16,154 bases of DNA from Elainellaceae cyanobacterium (GCA_051117555.1 JBNPEG010000081.1:1-16154); one strand, 5' to 3'; counted from the stretch's first letter, positions 1-10,394 are shown. Notes: generated by a model not told the origin, from the letters alone. Numbers and translations: made by a program.

Positions 1-117
1 AAGCAGATTGGTCGTCGCGTCAAAATCTCAGGTGCTCAGTGGAATGAAAACAACGTTCCACAAGTCCTGGCTCATCGTTGCGCTTACCTCAATGGCATGA
101 TTGGGGCGCAAAAGTGA
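1..117 (+). CDS. C-terminal end of an ISKra4-family transposase (partial; runs off the left edge)
   Basis: Frame 1 reads KQIGRRVKISGAQWNENNVPQVLAHRCAYLNGMIGAQK-stop. This matches the characteristic C-terminus of cyanobacterial ISKra4-type transposases. It is not in the ORF track. Confidence 0.85.
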   Translation, partial: KQIGRRVKISGAQWNENNVPQVLAHRCAYLNGMIGAQK

Positions 118-126
118 CATGCTCCC
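1..126 (+). mobile_element. Right end of an ISKra4-like insertion sequence; candidate terminal inverted repeat at 108-126 (GCAAAAGTGACATGCTCCC)
   Basis: The transposase stop lies inside a terminal sequence ending in CCC (GGGAGCATGTCACTTTTGC on the minus strand), as expected for this family. The NACHT gene sequence begins directly after it. The other end is outside the window. Confidence 0.75.
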
Positions 127-1053
127 AACTACATGTCCCTGATCAACACCAGTCCACACAGCAAATCGGTTGGCAAAGGTTGTAACAGCGGCAATTCGAG
201 CTGCCACAATCAAGCGTTGATCACTATCTAAGCTGCCTACACGGCTTGAAGCATGACGGCTTTCATTCACTTCTTCACAGAGAAGCTTACATCCCTCAAG
301 ATAAAGTTCATGAAGTCTCTGATCTAGAGGGAATTGCCCACTATGACGGCGGTATGTGTTCAGCAAAAATCCTAGCGTGATTGGTTTGATTGCTAGGGGG
401 ACAGCATCCTTCTGATCAATTTCCTTCAGGAAATTATCAGGAGAAAAGTTGTCAACTTCTGCGGCTTCGACGACATCGATACGCCGAAGCGGAGCTAACT
501 CATAAACTCTAAAACAATCTTCTTTCCAAAGCTCCTTCAGTCCTTCTTCCAGGATTGCTGGAAATACGAATGTCCGACACGCTAGACGCAGATGAAGACG
601 ATTAATATGATTCTGATATTTTGGCTTCTTAAGCTCATCAATTAAACCTGTCGCTAGAGTTGGAATGCTCAAAAGACCTTCATCAAGGCTATCCAGAAAC
701 AGATAAAGATGATGACTATTCCCTAACCAATCAGTAAAAGTTTCATCCCTAAACAGATCTTCTTTTAGATTGGTACAAGATCGGAGATTCAGTTCTAAGA
801 CTTGACTGGCTTCGCAGATTTCCTTTTCCGTAAAGTCTTTTAGCTTTTCCAATTCACGAGACTTCCCGATGCCTGGTTCCCCTAGCAAGACTAGACATGG
901 AACATCAGCGATCGCCTCTAAACTCACTAAATCTGGGTTATATGCCTTCCCCCATTCCCCATCTGGATCACACAGATAACCACCACAAGCCAGATTAATA
1001 TTACCTGACCGAGGGCACCAAAATCGTTTCCAGTCATAGTCCTTTTTCGGCAT
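127..1053 (-). pseudogene. 5' part of a NACHT/STAND P-loop NTPase gene, interrupted by the IS
   Basis: Walker A LLGEPGIGKS, Walker B LYLFLDSLDE and a downstream RLACRT motif are present. The last ~32 codons of ORF 28..1053 (GSMSLLRPNH...) are read-through into the antisense strand of the IS. Confidence 0.8.
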
Positions 1054-2206: not shown

Positions 2207-3490
2207 TTAACGAACATTGGCAATGCTATCTACAGTTGGGAGAGAAATCGAAAGATGTCCCAACTTTTCAGCCTTCGTTGATAAATAGCGAGCATTAAAC
2301 GAATTGATATCCGTCACCAACGGAATTCGATCAACCACATTGAGCCCAAACCCCCTCAAGCCCGAAATTTTACGAGGATTATTGGTAATCAGTCGAATAT
2401 TGCGAACACCAATATCATTCAGAATTTGCGCGCCGATCCCATAATTTCGCAAATCAGGCTTAAATCCAAGTTTCTCATTCGCTTCAACCGTGTCAAATCC
2501 CTTATCCTGCAATGAATAGGCTTTGAGCTTATTCACCAACCCAATGCCTCGACCCTCCTGTCGGAGATACACCACGACACCGTGTCCTTCCTGTTCGATC
2601 ATTCGTAATGATGTATGAAGTTGTGCTCGACAATCACATCGCAGAGAACCAAGGATATCCCCGGTCAAACATTCAGAATGCACGCGCACCATCAACGTCC
2701 GGTCATGGAAGGTAGCAGGATCACCTTTGACAATTGCAATATGCTCTGAATGGTCAAGCACATTGCGATACGCATAGACATCAAACTGACCAAATTCGGT
2801 CGGCAGACTCGTTGAAGCTTCACGGTAAACCAGTCTTTCCTGGTGTAAGCGATAGTTGATCAAATCTGCAATGCTAATCATCTTCAACTGGTGAGTTCGC
2901 GAATACTCAACGAGATTGGGCAACCGTGCCATCGAGCCATCAAGATTCTGGATTTCGCAAATTAGCCCCGCTGGATATAATCCTGTAAATCGCATCAAAT
3001 CAACAGCGGCTTCAGTATGTCCGGCTCTGACTAAAACTCCACCTTTCTTTGCACGCAGCGGAAAGACATGCCCCGGACGACACAAATCATCCGGTTGAGT
3101 CGCGGGGTTAATACAGGCTTGAATCGTTAGCGCTCGATCGTTTGCCGAAATTCCTGTCCCGCCACCGAGTTTTTTAGATGCATCAACACTGACTGTAAAT
3201 GCAGTTTCATGGTCATCCGTATTCCGCTGAACCATGTCTTTTAAATTGAGTTCATCGAGGCGAGAACCCTCCATCGCAAGACACAATAACCCACGAGCAT
3301 GAGTCGCCATGAAGTTGATGACTTGAGGCGTGACAAACTGAGCTGCACAGATTAGATCGCCTTCATTTTCTCGATGCTCATCATCTACAACAATCACCAT
3401 TCGTCCAGACCTTAATTCTGCTAATGCATCTGGAATTGAATCAAATAAATGGCGATTAATTGAGACTGGTTCAGTGGTATTAGTCTGCAT
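2207..3490 (-). CDS. ribBA: Bifunctional 3,4-dihydroxy-2-butanone-4-phosphate synthase / GTP cyclohydrolase II
   Basis: DHBP synthase motifs [34 protein letters not shown] and RAGHTEA. GCH II motifs [10 protein letters not shown]...RCDC (Zn ligands), QEGRGIGL and TNNPRK. Start placed at ATG 3490 (track uses TTG 3502). Confidence 0.95.
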
Positions 3491-3602
3491 TCGTGGTTTC
3501 AAAACTAAGATGAATTGATGACCTAATCAAAACTATTAATCGACAGCTTAGCGATGACCACTATGACAAATCGTAATTTTCAATACATATCTAAGGCTGC
3601 GC

Positions 3603-3873
3603 TATTCCATTTTGGAATATATAGGCTTGGACTCGATCAAATTCAGATTTCCAAATTGGAAAAATGCTTGTTCTAGAGCATCAGAGACATGTCAAGCATA
3701 TTTAAATACGACACAAGTATCGGTTTTCCTTAAAAAATCTGCGGATTTTTTGCGTCTTTAGTTCGCAAATTGAATGCTTTCCTTAAGAGCTTTATTCCGA
3801 AAGAGAATAGGTAATTTAGTAAATTTAGCTACGGAATTTAATGTGTTCAGTTGAGATATTCCATAACGTAATA
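3603..3873. promoter_or_regulatory. Four copies of a palindromic operator, consensus TATTCC-N5-GGAATA (T-N11-A core)
   Basis: TATTCCATTTTGGAATA 3603-3619 (perfect arms); ATTTCCAAATTGGAAAA 3647-3663; TATTCCGAAAGAGAATA 3793-3809; TATTCCATAACGTAATA 3857-3873. Confidence 0.6.
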
Positions 3874-3889
3874 GCTGAATAAATGTTAC

Positions 3890-3930
3890 GTATATCTGCA
3901 TACAATGTTCAAAGAAATAGCTGATAATGT
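3890..3930 (+). promoter_or_regulatory. NtcA-type activated promoter upstream of the symporter cluster
   Basis: GTA-TATCTGCA-TAC(A) at 3890-3903, a 21-nt spacer, then TAATGT (TAN3T) at 3925-3930 preceded by TGn. A second GTA-N8-TAC lies at 3819-3832. Confidence 0.65.
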
Positions 3931-3993
3931 TTACTCTCAAATCACCCAATAAAACAGTTTGTCACTTTCTTTTATTAGATTTGGGAGTAAAGA

Positions 3994-5466
3994 ATGGCAG
4001 GTATTGAGTTAGTTGCAAATCCTTCTTTGGCTCCAAGCCAAGGGATAGCAATGTTATTTTTGCTTGGATTAATATCATTAGGAGTCGCCTTTTATGTAAA
4101 ATCCAAGCTTGTTAAAAACACCCATGATTTCATCATTGCAGGACGTAAGTTAGGGTTTGGATTTGGTGTCGCCGGGTTAATTTCAGTCTGGACATGGGCG
4201 ATGGCAGTGATGATGTCGGCTGCGATGGCATATAACTTCGGATTGTCAGGATTGTGGTGGTTTACAGTCCCAAACGGGCTGGCTGTGATTGCCGTGATTC
4301 CATTTGCCAAACAGCTTAGAGAGAAGATGCCGCATGGCTATACCATGGGTGAATTTGTAAGCTCACGCTTTGATGGCGCAAAGCTGGCACGCATCGTAGT
4401 GACGGTAGGTTTAATTTTCGGTTCTCTGATTGAAATCATCATTAATTTGAAAGGTACGTCGCTGGTGATTTCTACAGTATTTGGGATGAACCCGACGACC
4501 GTTGCCGTCATTGCGATCGCCATTGTATTGATTTACAGCATGCTGGGTGGACTGTGGGCATCGATGTCTACGTCAACGTTGACAACGTTGTTTATCACAG
4601 TTCCTGCCTCAATTGTGATTATTTCAGTGTTACAGCATCTCGGCGGCGCTGCGCCTATTTGGGAAGAAGTGTCCGCACGAGGTAGTGAACTATTATCCGT
4701 CACACGCGCAGATGTTCCAGCCGCATTCGGAATCACCCTAGCGCTGGGATTGTTGACAGCAACCTTGGCAGGTCAATCTTTCTGGCAAGTCGTTTGGGGG
4801 CTCAAGCCTAAAGAAGTAGGACGGACATTTCTCTGGGCAGGGTCGTGGTTCTACCCAATCCCAATTTGCTTGGGGATTTTAGGACTCATTGGAATCGCGT
4901 TGAATGTGGATCTGGCAACCGATCTTGGTAATGATGCTGCCGCAGTTGGACCCTTTGTAATTTCTCATATTGGCTTACCCAACTGGTTAATCTATTCCTA
5001 TGTGTTTGTGATCCTTTCGGCCTGTTATTCAACCATGGATGGCGCACTGGCGTCGCTCAGCTCTATTGCGGCTGTGGATGTGATTAAACCTGTTTCACCC
5101 CAGGTTCAAGACCGCACTCTATTTGGTTTAACCCGGATTTCGATGCTGGTTGCAGCCGCAATTGCACTGATCGTGGTGCTATCGGGGATAGACTTCGTCA
5201 CGATTGTATTGACGACCTATGCCATTCGCACCGCAATCTTAGTGCCGTTGATGCTCGCAATCTTCTGGCCCAAGATGACAGCAAATGGATTTGTATGGGG
5301 AACGATTGCGGCGATCGCCATTGGCATGCCATTGCGGATGGTCTTTGGTGAATTAATCGGAACGCTTGCCATCTTAGGAATTAGTGCCGTGGTGCCCATT
5401 GCTCTCAGCTTTTCTAATACGCGTCCGTTTGATTACGACTCCCTCAAGCGAGTTGAAGATATCTAG
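3994..5466 (+). CDS. Sodium:solute symporter (SSS) family transporter, DUR3-like
   Basis: About 13 hydrophobic segments. SSS motifs DFIIAGR, YSMLGGLWAS and SACYSTMDG. SVWTWA...AYNFGLSGLWW resembles the WTWA segment of DUR3 urea/amine transporters. SD GGGAG. Confidence 0.85.
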   Translation: MAGIELVANPSLAPSQGIAMLFLLGLISLGVAFYVKSKLVKNTHDFIIAGRKLGFGFGVAGLISVWTWAMAVMMSAAMAYNFGLSGLWWFTVPNGLAVIAVIPFAKQLREKMPHGYTMGEFVSSRFDGAKLARIVVTVGLIFGSLIEIIINLKGTSLVISTVFGMNPTTVAVIAIAIVLIYSMLGGLWASMSTSTLTTLFITVPASIVIISVLQHLGGAAPIWEEVSARGSELLSVTRADVPAAFGITLALGLLTATLAGQSFWQVVWGLKPKEVGRTFLWAGSWFYPIPICLGILGLIGIALNVDLATDLGNDAAAVGPFVISHIGLPNWLIYSYVFVILSACYSTMDGALASLSSIAAVDVIKPVSPQVQDRTLFGLTRISMLVAAAIALIVVLSGIDFVTIVLTTYAIRTAILVPLMLAIFWPKMTANGFVWGTIAAIAIGMPLRMVFGELIGTLAILGISAVVPIALSFSNTRPFDYDSLKRVEDI

Positions 5467-5473
5467 CCGTGAT

Positions 5474-5508
5474 GAACTACTGACTTTGGGCGATCGCGGC
5501 AGTAGTTC
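5474..5508 (+). other. Intergenic stem-loop around a HIP1 site
   Basis: Perfect 9-bp inverted repeat GAACTACTG / CAGTAGTTC just after the symporter stop. No U-tail, so possibly an mRNA stability or processing element. Confidence 0.45.
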
Positions 5509-5568
5509 GGAATAGGGCGCATCATAAGACGCATTATCAATCTACGTCACCCTACAAAGAGGTCAACT

Positions 5569-6075
5569 ATGAAGACTCCAGCACATAATCATTCCTTGAA
5601 CGACTTCATTAAGCAAAGCAAATACTTCATCGTCGGTGCGTTAGCCACGGTAATAACACTCGCCATTCACGCCAAAGCTAATGCGGCATCTCCTGCAACG
5701 CTTGGGGGCTTCATTTCACCCATCACGATTATTTTTCTCATCGTCGGGATTGCAGTGTGTGTGTTCTATATCAAAGCAATGCTGACCATATTACATGAAG
5801 CCGCCGATTCGTACACCGAAGTGGAAGATGATACAGACGGTTCCTACTATGCTGCACCTGCATGGGGCGCGGCGTTAGCGGGAGTTATTGCTGCGATCGT
5901 AATCTGGTCGTATGGCGTAAATCCTTCATTTTTCTATTTAGGACCTGTGCTGTCAATGCTCAGCCCGATTGCAATTCTGTACTGCATGCTGCAAGACATC
6001 AAAAACTTTAAGTTGGCTCATATGGAAATGAGAGATAAGGACAATAAAGCGATTTCTGAACTGATTGAACACTAA
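5569..6075 (+). CDS. Hypothetical membrane protein (168 aa)
   Basis: SD AGAGG. Signal-peptide-like N-terminus ending AKANAA, then about three hydrophobic helices with an acidic loop (EVEDDTDG). Co-oriented with the cluster. Confidence 0.75.
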   Translation: MKTPAHNHSLNDFIKQSKYFIVGALATVITLAIHAKANAASPATLGGFISPITIIFLIVGIAVCVFYIKAMLTILHEAADSYTEVEDDTDGSYYAAPAWGAALAGVIAAIVIWSYGVNPSFFYLGPVLSMLSPIAILYCMLQDIKNFKLAHMEMRDKDNKAISELIEH

Positions 6076-6112
6076 CTAAAACTGAAAAACCGTGGGGATT
6101 ATCAGAACATAT

Positions 6113-6205
6113 GGGCGAACGGCTGTGCGCCAAGGCAGGCTACGCCAACGCCCCAACCCTTGGCATATCGCAAAGCTGTTCGCCCCCCGATCAACCCTTG
6201 GCATA
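6113..6205. repeat. Composite REP/SDR-like palindromic element
   Basis: GGGCGAACGGCT (6113-6124) pairs with AGCTGTTCGCCC (6174-6185); inner GCCAAGG/CCTTGGC. Contains AGGCTACGCCAACG. 14-bp direct repeat CAACCCTTGGCATA at 6154 and 6192. Confidence 0.55.
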
Positions 6206-6263
6206 CTGTGACATTATCTTCTCCCAGACTCAATCAACTACTGTTCGGCTACTGTTCGACTTG

Positions 6264-8291
6264 ATGAAACTCGAAGACATCACGCTAAACCATATCAAGA
6301 TCCTAAAGACTGTCAATGATTGCCAGAGCTTTTCAAAGGCTGCTAAGAAATTGGGATACAGTCAAGCTTTAATCAGCAAGAAGGTGAAGCAACTAGAAGA
6401 CTATTTTGGAACCCGCTTACTCACTCGTTCGCCAGGCTTGGTGTGCCTTACGAACAAGGGTAAAAAACTAGTTGCAAAGACCTATGGAATTTTTGATGGC
6501 ATGGAGAACTTACAGCAAGAATTCCAGGCATCATTTAATGGAGTTGGTGAAGAGATTGTTGTTGGCATCACACCCCTGCTGTCAGAAGCATGGTTTGAGA
6601 AATATACCCATCGGTTTAGTATGTGCTTTCCCGGAAAGGAAATCAGGAAGGAGGTTACGTTATCCAACGATTTTTTGTCGTCAGGATCACCGTCTCCCAA
6701 TCTTCTGATTAATAATTCGTCTGCCTATCGCGAGAGCCATCCCTGCAATCGATTGCAAACCTATCGTATGCTTTTGATTGATTTTAATGCAGACACTGAA
6801 CATCACAAAACGGGCACAGTTAGCGTAAAAGATATTGATTTTAGCAATGTTTTTATCTTAGAAGAAGTCTACCGAGACCTATCGCGAAACCGATTTATCG
6901 ACAAGGTGAATTTGAGCCGCGCTTCGACGTTTGTTAGCTACACAGACGTCATTGAATCTGCGATCGCACATCAAAAATCAACGATTCTTCCTGAATGCTG
7001 TTTGATTGATCTCAAAAAATATAAGCACGTTTGCTACTCCACAGTCCGAGATACTAATGAATACGGAATTTATATTCATGTGCCACTACATAGCGAATTG
7101 CTCGTGCTTGCAGAAGGGCTCGTAAGAAGTTTTCGGCTAGAGCAAGATATTTTGGAAGAGAGCTATACACCTAGCTTTCAAGTAGGTGATTCTTCAACCA
7201 ATGAAATTGGAACATTAAGACTCGGAATACAGCGAGATTCTATTGGTCAACTTATCGCGGGACACGGAGTCAAATACATCTCTGAAATTCTCCGATCATC
7301 TTCCTTGGATTATACAAGCTTTAAAGACCTTGAAATTAGTCGAGAGTTTGAATTACAAATCAGCCTGTTTTCATCTGGAGAATTGATGAATCGACAAATG
7401 AAAAAGGGTGAATTAGATATCTGTATTATGGATGATGTTTCTCTCTTGAATAATGGATCATTATTTTTTGATGATCTCAGTTTTGGGTCAAAATTAATTG
7501 GCATCGCATCCTATAATATTTTGGGCCAAGACATTAGCGTTGTGTTGCCAAATGTCTCTCACATTACATCAGTTCAAGAATTGAAAGGGAAGCGAATTTC
7601 GACACCGTTTGGATCTAATTCTCATCGATTTATTATCAACTTACTTAATTTATGCGGTATTAATAGTAATGTGGACTGTACTTTGATTGATGAAGATCCT
7701 CGGACAGCAAGCAATAGCTTAGCCAACGGAAGTATTGATGCTCATATCTGTTGTGAAACCTTTGCCACTCTTTTGGAAGAATACAACTATTCCAAACGGC
7801 TGTATCAGGCTCAGGATTTCAACATTCGTCTTCCCTCTCTACGAGGAATCGTGTGTCGATCGCAATTTATTCGAGATAATCCTAAGTATGTAATCGCCTA
7901 TCTCCACAATTTGGCGATCGCCAACCATTGGTTCCTGACGAATCCGGTCGATGCTGCGCATACATTAAGCCAGTTGATCAATGTCAATTCCGCACAAGTC
8001 TTGAAATTTTTCTCATCAAACTTTGGCACTCGGATCGATCCCACCTTAAAACCCCAATGGTCATGGCTACTCAAAACATTAAACCGACGATTGGAAGGAA
8101 ATTATGGCATCTCAAAGTTCGATGTTGACTTTTGGATTGATGACTATTTTCTTCGGCTGACCTACAACCTGCTCGGGCTCGATTATCACTTTCAACAGGT
8201 GTCGTTTTCGAGTGAGTTATCAAACAGCTATTTCGTTGATGAGCAGTTTAGCAAGTATATGGAAGTATTAAACATGCAGCTAGTGTCTTGA
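6264..8291 (+). CDS. LysR-family transcriptional regulator fused to a C-terminal SsuA/TauA/NrtA-like (NMT1/THI5-type) solute-binding domain (675 aa)
   Basis: N-terminal LysR HTH (SFSKAAKKLGYSQALISKKVKQLEDYFGTRLLTRS...LTNKGK). The C-terminal half has SBP motifs LRLGIQ, FSSG...MKKGELDI, ITSVQELKGKRISTPFGSNSH, LANGSIDA and FIRDNP. Start placed at ATG 6264 because the track's upstream extension runs through a repeat element. Confidence 0.85.
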   Translation: MKLEDITLNHIKILKTVNDCQSFSKAAKKLGYSQALISKKVKQLEDYFGTRLLTRSPGLVCLTNKGKKLVAKTYGIFDGMENLQQEFQASFNGVGEEIVVGITPLLSEAWFEKYTHRFSMCFPGKEIRKEVTLSNDFLSSGSPSPNLLINNSSAYRESHPCNRLQTYRMLLIDFNADTEHHKTGTVSVKDIDFSNVFILEEVYRDLSRNRFIDKVNLSRASTFVSYTDVIESAIAHQKSTILPECCLIDLKKYKHVCYSTVRDTNEYGIYIHVPLHSELLVLAEGLVRSFRLEQDILEESYTPSFQVGDSSTNEIGTLRLGIQRDSIGQLIAGHGVKYISEILRSSSLDYTSFKDLEISREFELQISLFSSGELMNRQMKKGELDICIMDDVSLLNNGSLFFDDLSFGSKLIGIASYNILGQDISVVLPNVSHITSVQELKGKRISTPFGSNSHRFIINLLNLCGINSNVDCTLIDEDPRTASNSLANGSIDAHICCETFATLLEEYNYSKRLYQAQDFNIRLPSLRGIVCRSQFIRDNPKYVIAYLHNLAIANHWFLTNPVDAAHTLSQLINVNSAQVLKFFSSNFGTRIDPTLKPQWSWLLKTLNRRLEGNYGISKFDVDFWIDDYFLRLTYNLLGLDYHFQQVSFSSELSNSYFVDEQFSKYMEVLNMQLVS

Positions 8292-8357
8292 GCTTTAGTT
8301 TGACTCAATCACGATAGTTCGCGCCGTTTATTGGTGATAGTTAAGGAGAATAGGTTA

Positions 8358-8906
8358 ATGCATGATATTGTGGCGATCGCTGGCAGCCCTTCTAGTTCTT
8401 CTAGGTCTTCAGCAGTATTAGAGTATGCAAACCATATTTTGATCAATCAAGGATTAAAAGTTGAGTCGATTACCGTTCGCAGTATTCCGCCTGAAGATTT
8501 AGTGTTTGGCAACTTTGAAAGCCCTGCATTGAAAGAGGTAAGTCAGCTCATCGAAAACGCCAAGGGCATTGTGATTGCAACTCCGGTCTATAAAGCATCG
8601 TACACAGGAGTACTGAAAGCAATGCTAGACTTGCTGTCCCAATATGCATTTGCAGGCAAAACTATTCTGCCGATTGCAACAGGAGGAACCATTACCCACC
8701 TCCTATCGATTGACTATGCTATGAAGCCCCTCTTTTCTACATTGGGAGCAACGAATATCCTACGGGGCGTCTTTATCGTTGACTCTCAGATGCAGCGTAC
8801 TGATGAAGGCGGCATCGTGCTTGATGACGATGTTGACCTCCGATTAAAAGAGTCACTCATTGAGCTATCTAGCATTTTGCAGCAAACCCGCCTAGCCGTT
8901 GGTTAG
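8358..8906 (+). CDS. ssuE: NAD(P)H-dependent FMN reductase
   Basis: IAGSPSSSSRS, ATPVYKASYTGVLKAMLDLL, LPIATGG...HLLSIDYAMKP. SD AAGGAG precedes ATG 8358. Confidence 0.92.
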   Translation: MHDIVAIAGSPSSSSRSSAVLEYANHILINQGLKVESITVRSIPPEDLVFGNFESPALKEVSQLIENAKGIVIATPVYKASYTGVLKAMLDLLSQYAFAGKTILPIATGGTITHLLSIDYAMKPLFSTLGATNILRGVFIVDSQMQRTDEGGIVLDDDVDLRLKESLIELSSILQQTRLAVG

Positions 8907-8924
8907 CTCCCAAAGAGCAGTCTC

Positions 8925-9027
8925 ATACCAATTCTTCGAAGTAAGGCTACAAATGAACAGGCTAGAACCCTTGCAAGGCTGGTGGCCGTCAATCCAAAAT
9001 CGCAAATCCAAAATCGAGAATTGGTAT
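8925..9027. mobile_element. MITE-like 103-bp element with an internal short tandem repeat
   Basis: Perfect 11-bp terminal inverted repeats ATACCAATTCT / AGAATTGGTAT. Internal AATCCAAAATCG occurs twice (STRR-like). Confidence 0.6.
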
Positions 9028-9071
9028 CACACCCCATCAATTTAGTTTTTGAAATACGAGGAAATAGCGAT

Positions 9072-10394
9072 ATGTCAGCTAAAAAGAAAGCACATCTTCT
9101 CGGCTTCCTTCAGCATGGAGTGAACAGTCACGCAACCGGAATGTGGCGGCATCCTAAAGATAAGGTTAACTGGGACTGGAGCAGTCCAGCTTACTGGCAG
9201 CATATGGCACGCACCATGGAACGCGGGCTTTTTGATGCCATGTTTATCGCTGACGAGCTTGCTCCGTACAATAACTTCGAGCAAAGCTCGGATGCCTGTG
9301 TGAAATGGGCGGTTCAATGTCCCACGCATGAACCATCCACCATCGTTCCTATCATTACAACTGCCACCAAGCATCTCGGTGTGGGTGTGACCTTATCGAC
9401 GGCGTTCGAACATCCCTATTCAATGGTGCGGCGACTTTCAAGTCTCGACCATCTTTCCGGGGGGCGCGTGGCTTGGAATATTGTCAGTTCTTACTCCAAA
9501 AGTGAATGGGATGCGTATGGAGCCGAAATGACCGATCGCTCGAAACGATATGAGCGAATGGAGGAGTACATGGAGATTTGCTATCAGCTCTGGGATTCAT
9601 GGGAACCCGATGCCATCATTGCGGACAAGGAAAGCGGAATCTTTGCTGATCCAGCGAAAGTCCATGAGGTAGATTTTAAGGGTGAGTTTTTTACTTGCAA
9701 AGGGCGATCGTTTTGCTTTCGTTCTCCTCAGGGCAAACCCGTCTTCTGGCAAGCCGGATCATCAAATCGAGGACGCGATTTTGCTGCAAAACATGCCGAA
9801 GCTATCTTCGCTGTCCATCCGACAGTCGAACGCATGCGCCAGTATTCAGATGACTTGAACACCCGATTGGAGAAAACGTTTAACCGCTCTCGTGGCAGTG
9901 TGAAGCTTATTTATGGATTGCAGTGCATTGTTGGTGAATCCAGAGACCATGCCCAGGAAAAATACGAGCAAATTCGCGACTGTATTCCTTTAGAGGGTGC
10001 ATTAGCGTGGATATCTGGGCATTTTGGACCAGACTTTTCGACGTATGACTTGAATGAGTATGTTCAAAATATCGAAATTCCTGGCATTCAAGGACTGTTT
10101 GAAAGCATCATTTATGCAAAAGGTGGAGAGCCTCTAACGGTTAAAGAGGCTGCACTCTACTATGCTATGGGAATGGGGATGCCCATTACAGTAGGCACAC
10201 CTGCCGATATTGCTGACAAGATGGAATACTACATGGATGAAGGGGGAGCAGATGGGTTTATGCTTGTCGCAACCTATACGCCTGGATGCTTTGAAGAATT
10301 TGTAGATATGGTGGTTCCTGAACTCCAACGCCGAGGACGCTTCCGGACAGAATATACCGGACAAACTCTGCGGGAGAATCTTCTAGCGTATTAA
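9072..10394 (+). CDS. FMNH2-dependent monooxygenase, NtaA/DszA/DmoA/SnaA family (luciferase-like class)
   Basis: GMWRHP, ERGLFDAMFIAD, HPYSMVRRLSSLDHLSGGRVAWNIVSS, LWDSWEPDA, SPQGKPVFWQAGSSNRGRDFAAKHAEAIF, VVPELQRRGRFRTEYTGQTLRENL. SD GAGG precedes ATG 9072. Confidence 0.93.
   Translation: MSAKKKAHLLGFLQHGVNSHATGMWRHPKDKVNWDWSSPAYWQHMARTMERGLFDAMFIADELAPYNNFEQSSDACVKWAVQCPTHEPSTIVPIITTATKHLGVGVTLSTAFEHPYSMVRRLSSLDHLSGGRVAWNIVSSYSKSEWDAYGAEMTDRSKRYERMEEYMEICYQLWDSWEPDAIIADKESGIFADPAKVHEVDFKGEFFTCKGRSFCFRSPQGKPVFWQAGSSNRGRDFAAKHAEAIFAVHPTVERMRQYSDDLNTRLEKTFNRSRGSVKLIYGLQCIVGESRDHAQEKYEQIRDCIPLEGALAWISGHFGPDFSTYDLNEYVQNIEIPGIQGLFESIIYAKGGEPLTVKEAALYYAMGMGMPITVGTPADIADKMEYYMDEGGADGFMLVATYTPGCFEEFVDMVVPELQRRGRFRTEYTGQTLRENLLAY

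Follow-up and report, generated by a model that had tools for sequence, protein, structure and literature searches.

A symporter-linked flavin monooxygenase cluster with a LysR-SsuA-like fusion regulator and its own ribBA, a probable organosulfur-scavenging module in an Elainellaceae cyanobacterium

The ssuEADCB genes form the alkanesulfonate system of E. coli and Pseudomonas, in which the NAD(P)H:flavin mononucleotide (FMN) reductase SsuE is paired with the FMNH2-dependent luciferase-like monooxygenase SsuD, and an ATP-binding cassette (ABC) transporter works with the periplasmic binding protein SsuA, whose fold recognises the substrate. The dimethylsulfone-methanesulfonate pathway of Pseudomonas and Acinetobacter, encoded by msuEDC, sfnFG and sfnECR, is also built on two-component flavin monooxygenases run by one reductase, according to the accessible parts of PMC13352529, PMC11588060 and PMC8234197. 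Here, we describe a gene cluster from an Elainellaceae cyanobacterium (GCA_051117555.1 JBNPEG010000081.1:1-16154) that probably represents an organosulfur-scavenging module, a symporter-based counterpart of the ssu, msu and sfn systems as judged from its sequence. The window analysed is the first 16,154 nt of the 18,465-nt contig C240 in a 6.06-Mb, 100% complete genome (G000).

Genes were called by listing of open reading frames (ORFs) together with Pfam and NCBIfam profile scans against curated cut-offs, which recovered every gene named in the first-pass annotation. On the minus strand lies ribBA2 (2207..3490), encoding a second, short 3,4-dihydroxy-2-butanone-4-phosphate synthase/GTP cyclohydrolase II. 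Divergent from it, the plus strand carries genes for a sodium:solute symporter (SSS) importer (3994..5466), a small membrane protein (5569..6075), a fusion regulator consisting of a LysR protein and a C-terminal SsuA-like domain (6264..8291), an SsuE-type NAD(P)H:FMN reductase (8358..8906) and an FMNH2-dependent luciferase-like monooxygenase of the NtaA/DmoA family, hereafter LLM (9072..10394). As in the ssu system, the reductase is an SsuE equivalog (TIGR03567, 225.1 bits against a cut-off of 164.05; PF03358 also matched) and accompanies an FMNH2-dependent luciferase-like monooxygenase, but this enzyme is of the 440-aa NtaA/DmoA type and not SsuD, scoring 491.9 bits on TIGR03860 (cut-off 279.7, model positions 4-422 of 422) and 45.5 bits on the SsuD model. 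The adjacent ssuE gene points to an oxygenase that takes FMNH2 from a separate reductase. Among the solved relatives of the LLM are LadA (351 bits), DmoA (336), DszA (291), riboflavin lyase (244), NtaA (220), EmoA (147) and HcbA1. DmoA (PDB 6ak1) and LadA (PDB 3b9n), which share the family model TIGR03860 with it, align over nearly its whole length and are its nearest solved relatives, but both are distant when set against the 77-89% identity that the LLM orthogroup itself keeps across phyla. Moreover, they act on dimethyl sulfide and alkanes, whereas the constant SSS implies a polar, imported substrate. DmoA and DszA cleave C-S bonds, and NtaA and EmoA, which cleave C-N bonds, are the remotest of the solved matches listed; this argues against the amine-type substrate first suggested for this locus. 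Neither SsuD, SfnG nor TauD was found in the complete source genome, so the LLM is its only enzyme of this kind. In contrast to the msu and sfn clusters, the window lacks SfnG and MsuD/SsuD, and the constant enzyme belongs to an uncharacterised NtaA/DmoA-type orthogroup.

To place the cluster in other bacteria, relatives were collected by a scan with the LLM as query, one genome per species, giving 31 loci in which the window proteins were then located by tblastn. An LLM orthologue with 77-98% identity is present in 30 of them, spanning Cyanobacteriota, Myxococcota, Alpha- and Gammaproteobacteria, Bacillota (Paenibacillus and Cohnella) and a Verrucomicrobiota metagenome-assembled genome (MAG); the remaining locus, L036, has a 39% paralogue instead. 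The SSS gene was found next to the LLM gene in 21/31 loci. Nine of the ten SSS-negative loci end at a contig break 35-3490 nt upstream of the LLM gene, where the SSS gene is expected from the cyanobacterial gene order, and in the tenth, L036, the flanks are complete and no SSS was found by tblastn. All orthologue loci with an uncut flank (21/21) therefore carry the SSS. The SSS proteins of related loci are 48-85% identical, and the far higher conservation of the LLM across phyla suggests that its active site is tightly constrained. Immediately 3' of the SSS gene, all loci examined, across phyla, have an ORF of 99-209 aa that shares the hydrophobic three-helix core; the Bacillota version is below BLAST detection, yet alignable. 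A close SsuE is found in 13/31 loci and the fusion regulator in 11/31. The SSS, the small protein and the LLM are thus the constant core, and the fusion regulator and close SsuE are cyanobacterial additions. Among 401 cyanobacterial genomes, the LLM orthologue (at least 86% identity) is present in 9, the SSS in 7 and the full-length regulator in 4. All seven SSS-bearing cyanobacteria have an NtaA/DmoA-type LLM, on the same contig and about 5 kb away or closer in six of them; the seventh genome is 61% complete and has the two genes on separate contigs. Both samples thus bear out, by gene neighbourhood, the co-occurrence in other genomes that had been expected of the genes. The triad is also carried by a Pararhizobium plasmid, where RefSeq names its members 'sodium:solute symporter', 'hypothetical protein' and 'LLM class flavin-dependent oxidoreductase', and in Elainella saxicola (L010) the order is SSS, small protein, ssuE, ribBA and LLM. 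Named strains with the module include Elainella saxicola E1, cf. Phormidesmis sp. LEGE 11477, Marinobacter sp. EhC06, Paenibacillus fonticola DSM 21315 and Pararhizobium qamdonense T808.

Several loci carry variants of the monooxygenase. On the Egbenema chromosome (L038:10001-10252) the LLM looks truncated, because only residues 65-148 matched, and in a Phormidium lacuna MAG (L016:901-2213) it is broken into two ORFs; such cases reflect either gene decay or misassembly. Next to the core, L010, L024, L025 and L030, and also L023 and L029, have a further, shorter luciferase-like monooxygenase. It is SfnG-like, with 174-227 bits, below the SfnG cut-off. The Pararhizobium plasmid has a second 440-aa LLM at the place where others have this shorter protein.

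The importer sets the cluster apart from the ssu system, which uses an ABC transporter; no ABC transporter gene was found within the cluster by the Pfam and NCBIfam scans. The SSS (PF00474, 82.9 bits against a gathering cut-off of 22.8) belongs to a distinct subfamily and was placed in NCBIfam at superfamily level only (119 against a cut-off of 184). DUR3 is its nearest solved relative, and to that extent the label 'DUR3-like' given earlier is weakly supported; close similarity over the full length is not seen, since the match (51 bits, E = 8e-13) covers query residues 10-210 only, that is, the N-terminal 200 residues. The small protein, a hydrophobic ORF of 168 aa with a conserved core of three transmembrane (TM) segments, had no family match in the Pfam and NCBIfam scans, and the best hit of a Protein Atlas search (score 0.82) had no family attached. 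When the SSS was modelled in complex with small-protein residues 50-150, the score was 0.81, compared with 0.00 for the best of three controls. In a benchmark, 116 of 157 solved complexes and 2 of 215 mismatched pairs scored at least as high, counts that are only approximate because the alignments were the analysis's own. Contacts agreed by at least 93% between model runs, and the predicted local distance difference test (pLDDT) value of the partner was at least 77. The modelling supports the small 3-TM protein as a putative accessory subunit that binds the SSS. We know of no solved complex of an SSS protein with a small subunit of such kind.

Neighbouring genes in the related loci, identified by Pfam and NCBIfam scans and cross-checked by tblastn, point to sulfur. 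SfnG is present above its cut-off in L010 (626), L016 (622) and L025 (549), and L011 has an orthologue 76% identical to the SfnG of L010; SfnB is present above cut-off in L016 (631) and L038 (639). Likeness to the msu and sfn systems thus extends to SfnG or SfnB orthologues adjoining the core in five loci, one of which, L025, also has a sigma-54 activator. Genuine ssu genes adjoin the module in L034 and L015, where both SsuD (633 and 572, respectively) and SsuA (248 and 193) exceed their cut-offs. Other neighbours include a CymR-like Rrf2 protein in L038 and a rhodanese and a YedE-like gene in L010. Genes of the YeiH family of putative sulfate exporters, below cut-off, were found in two cyanobacteria and Marinobacter (L015:12729-14839, L028:1801-2847 and L030:13670-15701), paired with a YeiE-like LysR regulator in L015 and L030. 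No nitrogen-assimilation gene recurred around the 31 loci in these scans. Since the neighbours are SfnG, SfnB, SsuD and SsuA, the context is one of sulfur. Together with the SsuE-equivalog reductase and a sensor domain nearest to SsuA, it speaks against the first-pass annotation of the locus as a nitrogen-scavenging system.

The regulator combines two known parts in one protein. Its helix-turn-helix (HTH) matched PF00126 with 57.7 bits, and the Pfam LysR_substrate domain was not detected in it. An AlphaFold model built from 28 sequences (mean pLDDT 69, predicted TM-score 0.43) comprises the HTH (residues 1-63), a linker helix (65-91), an alpha/beta domain (98-293), a disordered link, a second alpha/beta domain (317-590) and low-confidence C-terminal helices. 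The modelled protein thus has the HTH_1 domain, the linker helix and the two-lobed effector domain of a LysR regulator. In Foldseek searches, the first ~300 residues retrieved the full-length LysR regulators CcmR (5y2v, E = 5e-17), CbnR, OxyR and BenM, and the later part, an SsuA/NMT1-like region, retrieved SsuA (2x26, 3uif). The nearest match to this domain by sequence is also 3uif (E = 1.9e-6), and its resemblance to SsuA is real but distant. The regulator has no TM or other hydrophobic segment (maximum hydropathy 1.31), and, as the SsuA-like domain forms the C-terminal end of a DNA-binding protein, it does not correspond to a periplasmic binding protein. Because of the split seen with Foldseek and the lack of a hydrophobic segment, the protein is best described as a full LysR regulator to which a cytoplasmic SsuA-like domain has been added, a difference from the ssu system, whose SsuA is periplasmic. 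The extra domain may bind the substrate or the product. A total of 115 regulator homologues of 560-710 aa were found, and all the named ones are cyanobacterial.

A further difference from ssu is that a ribBA paralogue belongs to the unit. ribBA2 contains both domains (PF00926 and PF00925) and scored 772.7 bits on NF006806 against a cut-off of 764. Because only profile positions 8-408 of 561 were matched, it lacks the C-terminal extension of the long cyanobacterial form. The source genome has a second full ribBA on contig C58, which is of the long form and 70% identical to the cluster copy. One short (402-455 aa) and one long (565-589 aa) ribBA are likewise present in all five other cluster-bearing cyanobacterial genomes tested, the long one in two adjacent pieces in one of them. 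In a tree of 13 RibBA sequences based on the first 445 residues, from which two fragments and two extra alphaproteobacterial paralogues were omitted, the long copies formed one clade (99/98) and the short cluster-linked copies fell outside it; support for the deeper branches is weak, and two rows are very long. A ribBA or ribB gene lies within or next to the cluster in 8/31 loci, including those of an alphaproteobacterium and Marinobacter. It follows the LLM gene in L015, is divergent from the SSS gene in L009 and L028 and lies near the cluster in L016 and L038; in the Marinobacter operon ribB is downstream of the reductase gene, and in a Beijerinckiaceae MAG ribBA is sandwiched by two SfnG-type genes. 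The cluster ribBA is a dedicated short paralogue. Its reading as an incidental housekeeping neighbour was rejected because a second, long copy exists and because the promoter module is shared with the operon, so its inclusion in the module, as originally proposed, stands on a dedicated second copy with a mirrored promoter module.

Flavin supply is coupled to a sulfur uptake and degradation operon with FMN-dependent monooxygenases in Bacillus subtilis as well. There, as far as the accessible sections of PMC7693651 (citing Pedrolli et al. 2015) go, ribR lies in a sulfur-regulated 12-gene unit that is induced by methionine or taurine and repressed by sulfate, and RibR, a flavokinase that also binds RNA, overrides FMN riboswitches. 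The present cluster differs in using a whole extra RibBA expressed from a mirrored promoter, with no riboswitch. By analogy, ribR would be a precedent for sulfur scavenging by FMN enzymes that needs more flavin, the means being different here.

One RibBA relative stands out. In cf. Phormidesmis sp. LEGE 11477 (L015:11331-12698), a divergent RibBA-like protein of 455 aa is encoded directly 3' of the LLM gene. It is 42% identical to the window copy, scores 346 bits against the cut-off of 764 and has a very long branch, and it may no longer be an ordinary RibBA.

Between ribBA2 and the operon lies a 491-bp intergenic region (3503-3993) with a GC content of 0.32-0.33, compared with about 0.46 around it, in agreement with the shared AT-rich control region of ~500 bp described earlier. 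The NtcA boxes reported there were also confirmed: three of the window's five matches to GTAN8TAC (whole-window expectation 1.29) fall in this region, at 3573, 3819 and 3890. A 15-mer of LysR type, the T-N11-A palindrome ATTCCA-N3-TGGAAT, occurs at 3604 (0 mismatches), 3648 (2), 3794 (3) and 3858 (2). The four-times-repeated operator of the earlier description is thus present. The three boxes with at most two mismatches are the only such boxes in the window; at up to three mismatches the window has 14 boxes against 10.9 expected, not above chance. The perfect box at 3604 is the sole copy in the 6.06-Mb genome.

These elements are arranged in two mirrored composite modules, each consisting of a LysR box, 17 nt, GTAN8TAC, 21-22 nt and TAN3T. 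The module facing ribBA (3545..3618, minus strand) has its box at 3604-3618, GTAN8TAC at 3573-3586, where it reads GTATTGAAAATTAC from 3586 to 3573 on the other strand, and, after 22 nt, the -10-like TAAGCT at 3545-3550. The module facing the operon (3858..3930, plus strand) has its box at 3858-3872, GTAN8TAC at 3890-3903, reading GTATATCTGCATAC, and, after 21 nt, the -10-like TAATGT at 3925-3930. On dinucleotide-preserving shuffles, at least one composite arose in 1 of 20,000 and two or more in none, against the 2 observed. Genome-wide there are 3, of which 2 are in the control region; the third (C43:52865) lies between the ends of two convergent ORFs and was taken as chance. With a relaxed definition, 6 composites were found in 470,102 nt of related loci (two in L009 and one each in L015, L018, L022 and L028), all in SSS or ribBA promoters of regulator-bearing genomes. 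The SSS-upstream module keeps its order and spacing in L009, L015, L018 and L022, and the ribBA-facing module is also present in L009 and in L028 (Halomicronema), which has modules on both sides with a variant box toward the SSS. Relative to the inferred transcription start, predicted near 3937 on the plus strand and near 3538 on the minus strand, GTAN8TAC is centred at about -41 and the LysR box at about -72, so that in each promoter a LysR site would lie upstream of a CRP-family site of class II. Outside the composites, the control region also contains the secondary LysR-type box (3648..3662) 44 nt from the ribBA-side primary box, the weak secondary box (3794..3808; by itself at chance level) 64 nt upstream of the operon-side primary box, and the third GTAN8TAC match (3819..3832), which is conserved in the same-genus locus L009. 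A sigma-70 scan found no consensus promoter in the control region, and its totals were at shuffle level. Rfam scans at gathering score revealed no riboswitch in the window or in seven non-cyanobacterial loci (131,596 nt), so neither an S-box nor an FMN element helps to decide how the cluster is regulated.

In NtcA/NtcB-dependent nir promoters, too, a LysR box immediately precedes the NtcA site, and the modules share with these promoters GTAN8TAC, the 21-22-nt spacing, TAN3T and a T-N11-A palindrome directly upstream. They differ in that the LysR partner is a 675-aa fusion with an extra binding domain, the gene context is sulfur, and the sites of cluster orthologues depart from the NtcA consensus in 3/6 genomes, reading GTGN8CAC or GTAN8CAC in L015, L018 and L022. 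The source genome encodes NtcA (392 bits) and an NtcA paralogue, and either may be the CRP-family factor acting at the GTAN8TAC sites. The paralogue (C100:43130-43759, L096) has 210 aa and a recognition helix that differs from that of NtcA at 2/10 positions, and it could belong to the CysR type. The sulfur regulator CysR of Synechococcus elongatus is grouped with NtcA in the parts of PMC3590769 and PMC12016511 that are accessible, and no CysR binding motif was found in those parts. Matches to the paralogue (E = 1e-30 or better), some of which may be NtcA itself, were obtained in 360/401 cyanobacterial genomes. It was hence set aside as a cluster-specific co-regulator, because a near-universal distribution in cyanobacteria does not discriminate and decides nothing.

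We propose the following mechanism. The SSS and the small 3-TM subunit would import a small polar organosulfur compound, with methanesulfonate or another short alkanesulfonate, or else a related sulfone, as the likeliest candidate. SsuE would reduce FMN for the LLM, which, with FMNH2 and O2, would break the C-S bond to release sulfite or another assimilable sulfur species. The fusion regulator would sense the compound in the cytoplasm via its extra solute-binding domain, bind the ATTCCA-N3-TGGAAT boxes and, together with the CRP-family activator at GTAN8TAC near -41, fire the two back-to-back promoters, one driving the operon and the other the short RibBA isozyme that would raise flavin supply for the FMN-consuming pathway. 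A polar substrate in need of import is suggested because the SSS partner is constant, and one-step oxygenolytic release of sulfur from such a small compound would be the most economical reading of the five-gene unit. A short alkanesulfonate fits because the sensor is SsuA-like, the gene set is minimal and the loci with SfnG and SfnB lack SsuD/MsuD. This choice is a pathway-hole argument, not evidence, and a sulfone, a sulfoxide or a thioether is possible. The cluster is best read, as had been supposed, as a self-contained module for import, cytoplasmic sensing, cleavage by a two-component flavin monooxygenase and extra flavin supply.

Several observations weigh against an organosulfur function. 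The best solved relative of the LLM, LadA, is an alkane hydroxylase, so the case for C-S cleavage comes from genomic context. The SsuA-like domain scores below the TIGR01728 cut-off (84.9 against 163.5 bits). In the window, L009 and L028 the CRP-family site fits the NtcA consensus, which at face value means nitrogen control. Within the examined flanks of L031, L032, L035, L018, L022 and the Pararhizobium plasmid, no sulfur gene was seen. Paenibacillus fonticola and Phormidesmis have a full ssu set beside the module, which makes it improbable that a standard SsuD substrate is used. A sulfur-sparing composition, considered as a signature of sulfur starvation, was unsupported, since the cluster proteins are not depleted in Cys+Met relative to 3066 background ORFs (LLM at the 98th and RibBA2 at the 89th percentile).

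These points bear on three other readings. If the cluster scavenged nitrogen, it would import an organic nitrogen compound, the LLM would cleave a C-N bond as NtaA and EmoA do, and NtcA would activate transcription with the LysR fusion under nitrogen limitation. The geometry expected of NtcA promoters, GTAN8TAC followed by TAN3T about 22 nt on, is indeed found from the inferred start on both sides of the control region, and canonical sites of this type occur in three genomes. DUR3, the nearest solved relative of the SSS, is a urea transporter, and NtaA belongs to TIGR03860. Nevertheless, we regard this function as unlikely: sulfur genes recur across the 31 loci and nitrogen-assimilation neighbours do not, NtaA and EmoA are remote among the solved relatives listed, the reductase is an SsuE equivalog and the sensor SsuA-like, the sites of L015, L018 and L022 are off the consensus, the NtcA paralogue with its nearly identical recognition helix could use the same sites, and the DUR3 match is weak and partial. 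All the same, the NtcA-type sites are genuine and suitably positioned, so there may be some nitrogen input.

Carbon catabolism or detoxification acting on a small compound without sulfur, such as LadA- or HcbA1-like hydroxylation of alkyl or halogenated molecules, would agree with the top solved match of the LLM (LadA, 351 bits) and its match to HcbA1, with the loci devoid of sulfur neighbours and with the lack of a sulfur-sparing signature, and the sulfur neighbours would then reflect mere general clustering of FMN-dependent enzymes. Yet a hydrophobic substrate needs no symporter with an accessory subunit, alcohol or aldehyde dehydrogenases or other downstream carbon genes do not recur in the loci examined, one hydroxylation by a minimal five-gene module would yield a photoautotroph little carbon, and the SsuA-like sensor and SsuE-equivalog reductase do not suit such a role, so that we consider it about as unlikely as nitrogen scavenging. 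Still more improbable is a flavin-centred function, in which riboflavin or a related pteridine or pyrimidine would be broken down or salvaged and ribBA would be linked as part of the pathway and not for cofactor supply. Riboflavin lyase is among the solved LLM relatives (244 bits), the ribBA/ribB linkage recurs across phyla, and NMT1/THI5-like binding proteins include pyrimidine and riboflavin binders. But riboflavin lyase scores well under LadA, DmoA and DszA, 23/31 loci keep the core without ribBA, ribBA2 exceeds the RibBA equivalog cut-off and looks like an ordinary biosynthetic enzyme, and the neighbours are sulfur genes, not flavin genes. Organosulfur scavenging is thus the reading that we favour.

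Each part of the cluster is of a known kind and the overall logic is that of the ssu, msu and sfn systems; the combination and the sensor protein are undescribed. In keeping with the initial statement that no described system has this gene combination, no SSS-linked NtaA/DmoA monooxygenase, LysR::SsuA fusion or sulfur-cluster ribBA paralogue was found in the full-text literature searched, which covers few subscription journals, and the words 'symporter' and 'riboflavin' do not occur in the accessible portion of PMC13352529. If organosulfur scavenging is correct, the module would give cyanobacteria and many soil and marine bacteria a sulfur route from small organosulfur compounds without an ABC importer, SsuD, MsuD or TauD. 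Since the LLM orthogroup is highly conserved (77-89% identical between phyla) yet named by RefSeq only 'LLM class flavin-dependent oxidoreductase', one round of substrate screening would assign a function to thousands of genes. The cyanobacteria-only fusion regulator could become a ready-made biosensor scaffold, and the mirrored promoter pair would be a simple case in which cofactor supply is co-ordinated with demand. More tentatively, and with less confidence than the scavenging function itself, the SSS/3-TM/LLM triad might be an unrecognised cross-phylum uptake-desulfurisation system for one abundant organosulfur compound (methanesulfonate, dimethylsulfone or a close relative), to which cyanobacteria would have added a novel type of one-component sensor (a full LysR protein with an SsuA-type domain as its second ligand module, in the cytoplasm), NtcA/CysR-type co-activation integrating nutrient status and a private mirror-promoter RibBA. 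Were this speculative picture true, it would be the first case of cofactor synthesis hard-wired into a nutrient-scavenging promoter pair.

The source genome contains a second organosulfur-type cluster (C192:3000-21000, L062), with SfnB (584 bits), two SsuA-like binding proteins, a TauC/SaoP-like permease, an SaoA-like ATPase, three Rieske GbcA-like oxygenases, a formamidase-like gene and a TetR regulator. GTAN8TAC occurs twice in it against 1.37 expected, which is chance level. The Sbp/CysP sulfate-binding protein model TIGR00971 had no match in the complete source genome. In Cohnella (L035:4916-7576) and on the Pararhizobium plasmid (L104:2567-5423), ABC genes of iron-chelate type lie directly upstream of the SSS gene; as they did not recur by tblastn beyond these two, they were rejected as a partner of the module.

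As for the gene starts, the ribBA ORF as listed (2207-3502, minus strand) opens at TTG 3502, and its N-terminal translation indicates ATG 3490 as the likely true start. The regulator (listed ORF 6111-8291) probably starts at 6264 because its homologues measure 672-696 aa, and the LLM (listed ORF 8982-10394, GTG start) probably at 9072 because its homologues measure 438-442 aa. Homologue lengths and N-terminal translations suggest 8358 as the true start of ssuE, listed as 8331-8906 with a TTG start. Downstream of 10394 follow genes for an ArsA/Get3-like ATPase, a DUF2358 protein, TldD and a LivH/UrtB-like permease, which are common to same-genus loci only and appear to be outside the unit. At the other end of the window, a 341-aa ORF (28-1053, minus strand) weakly resembles the N-terminal NACHT part of the antiphage proteins EruA (62.6 bits) and HyoA (49.5 bits), against cut-offs of 1000 and more, and would be either a fragment or a small stand-alone NTPase.

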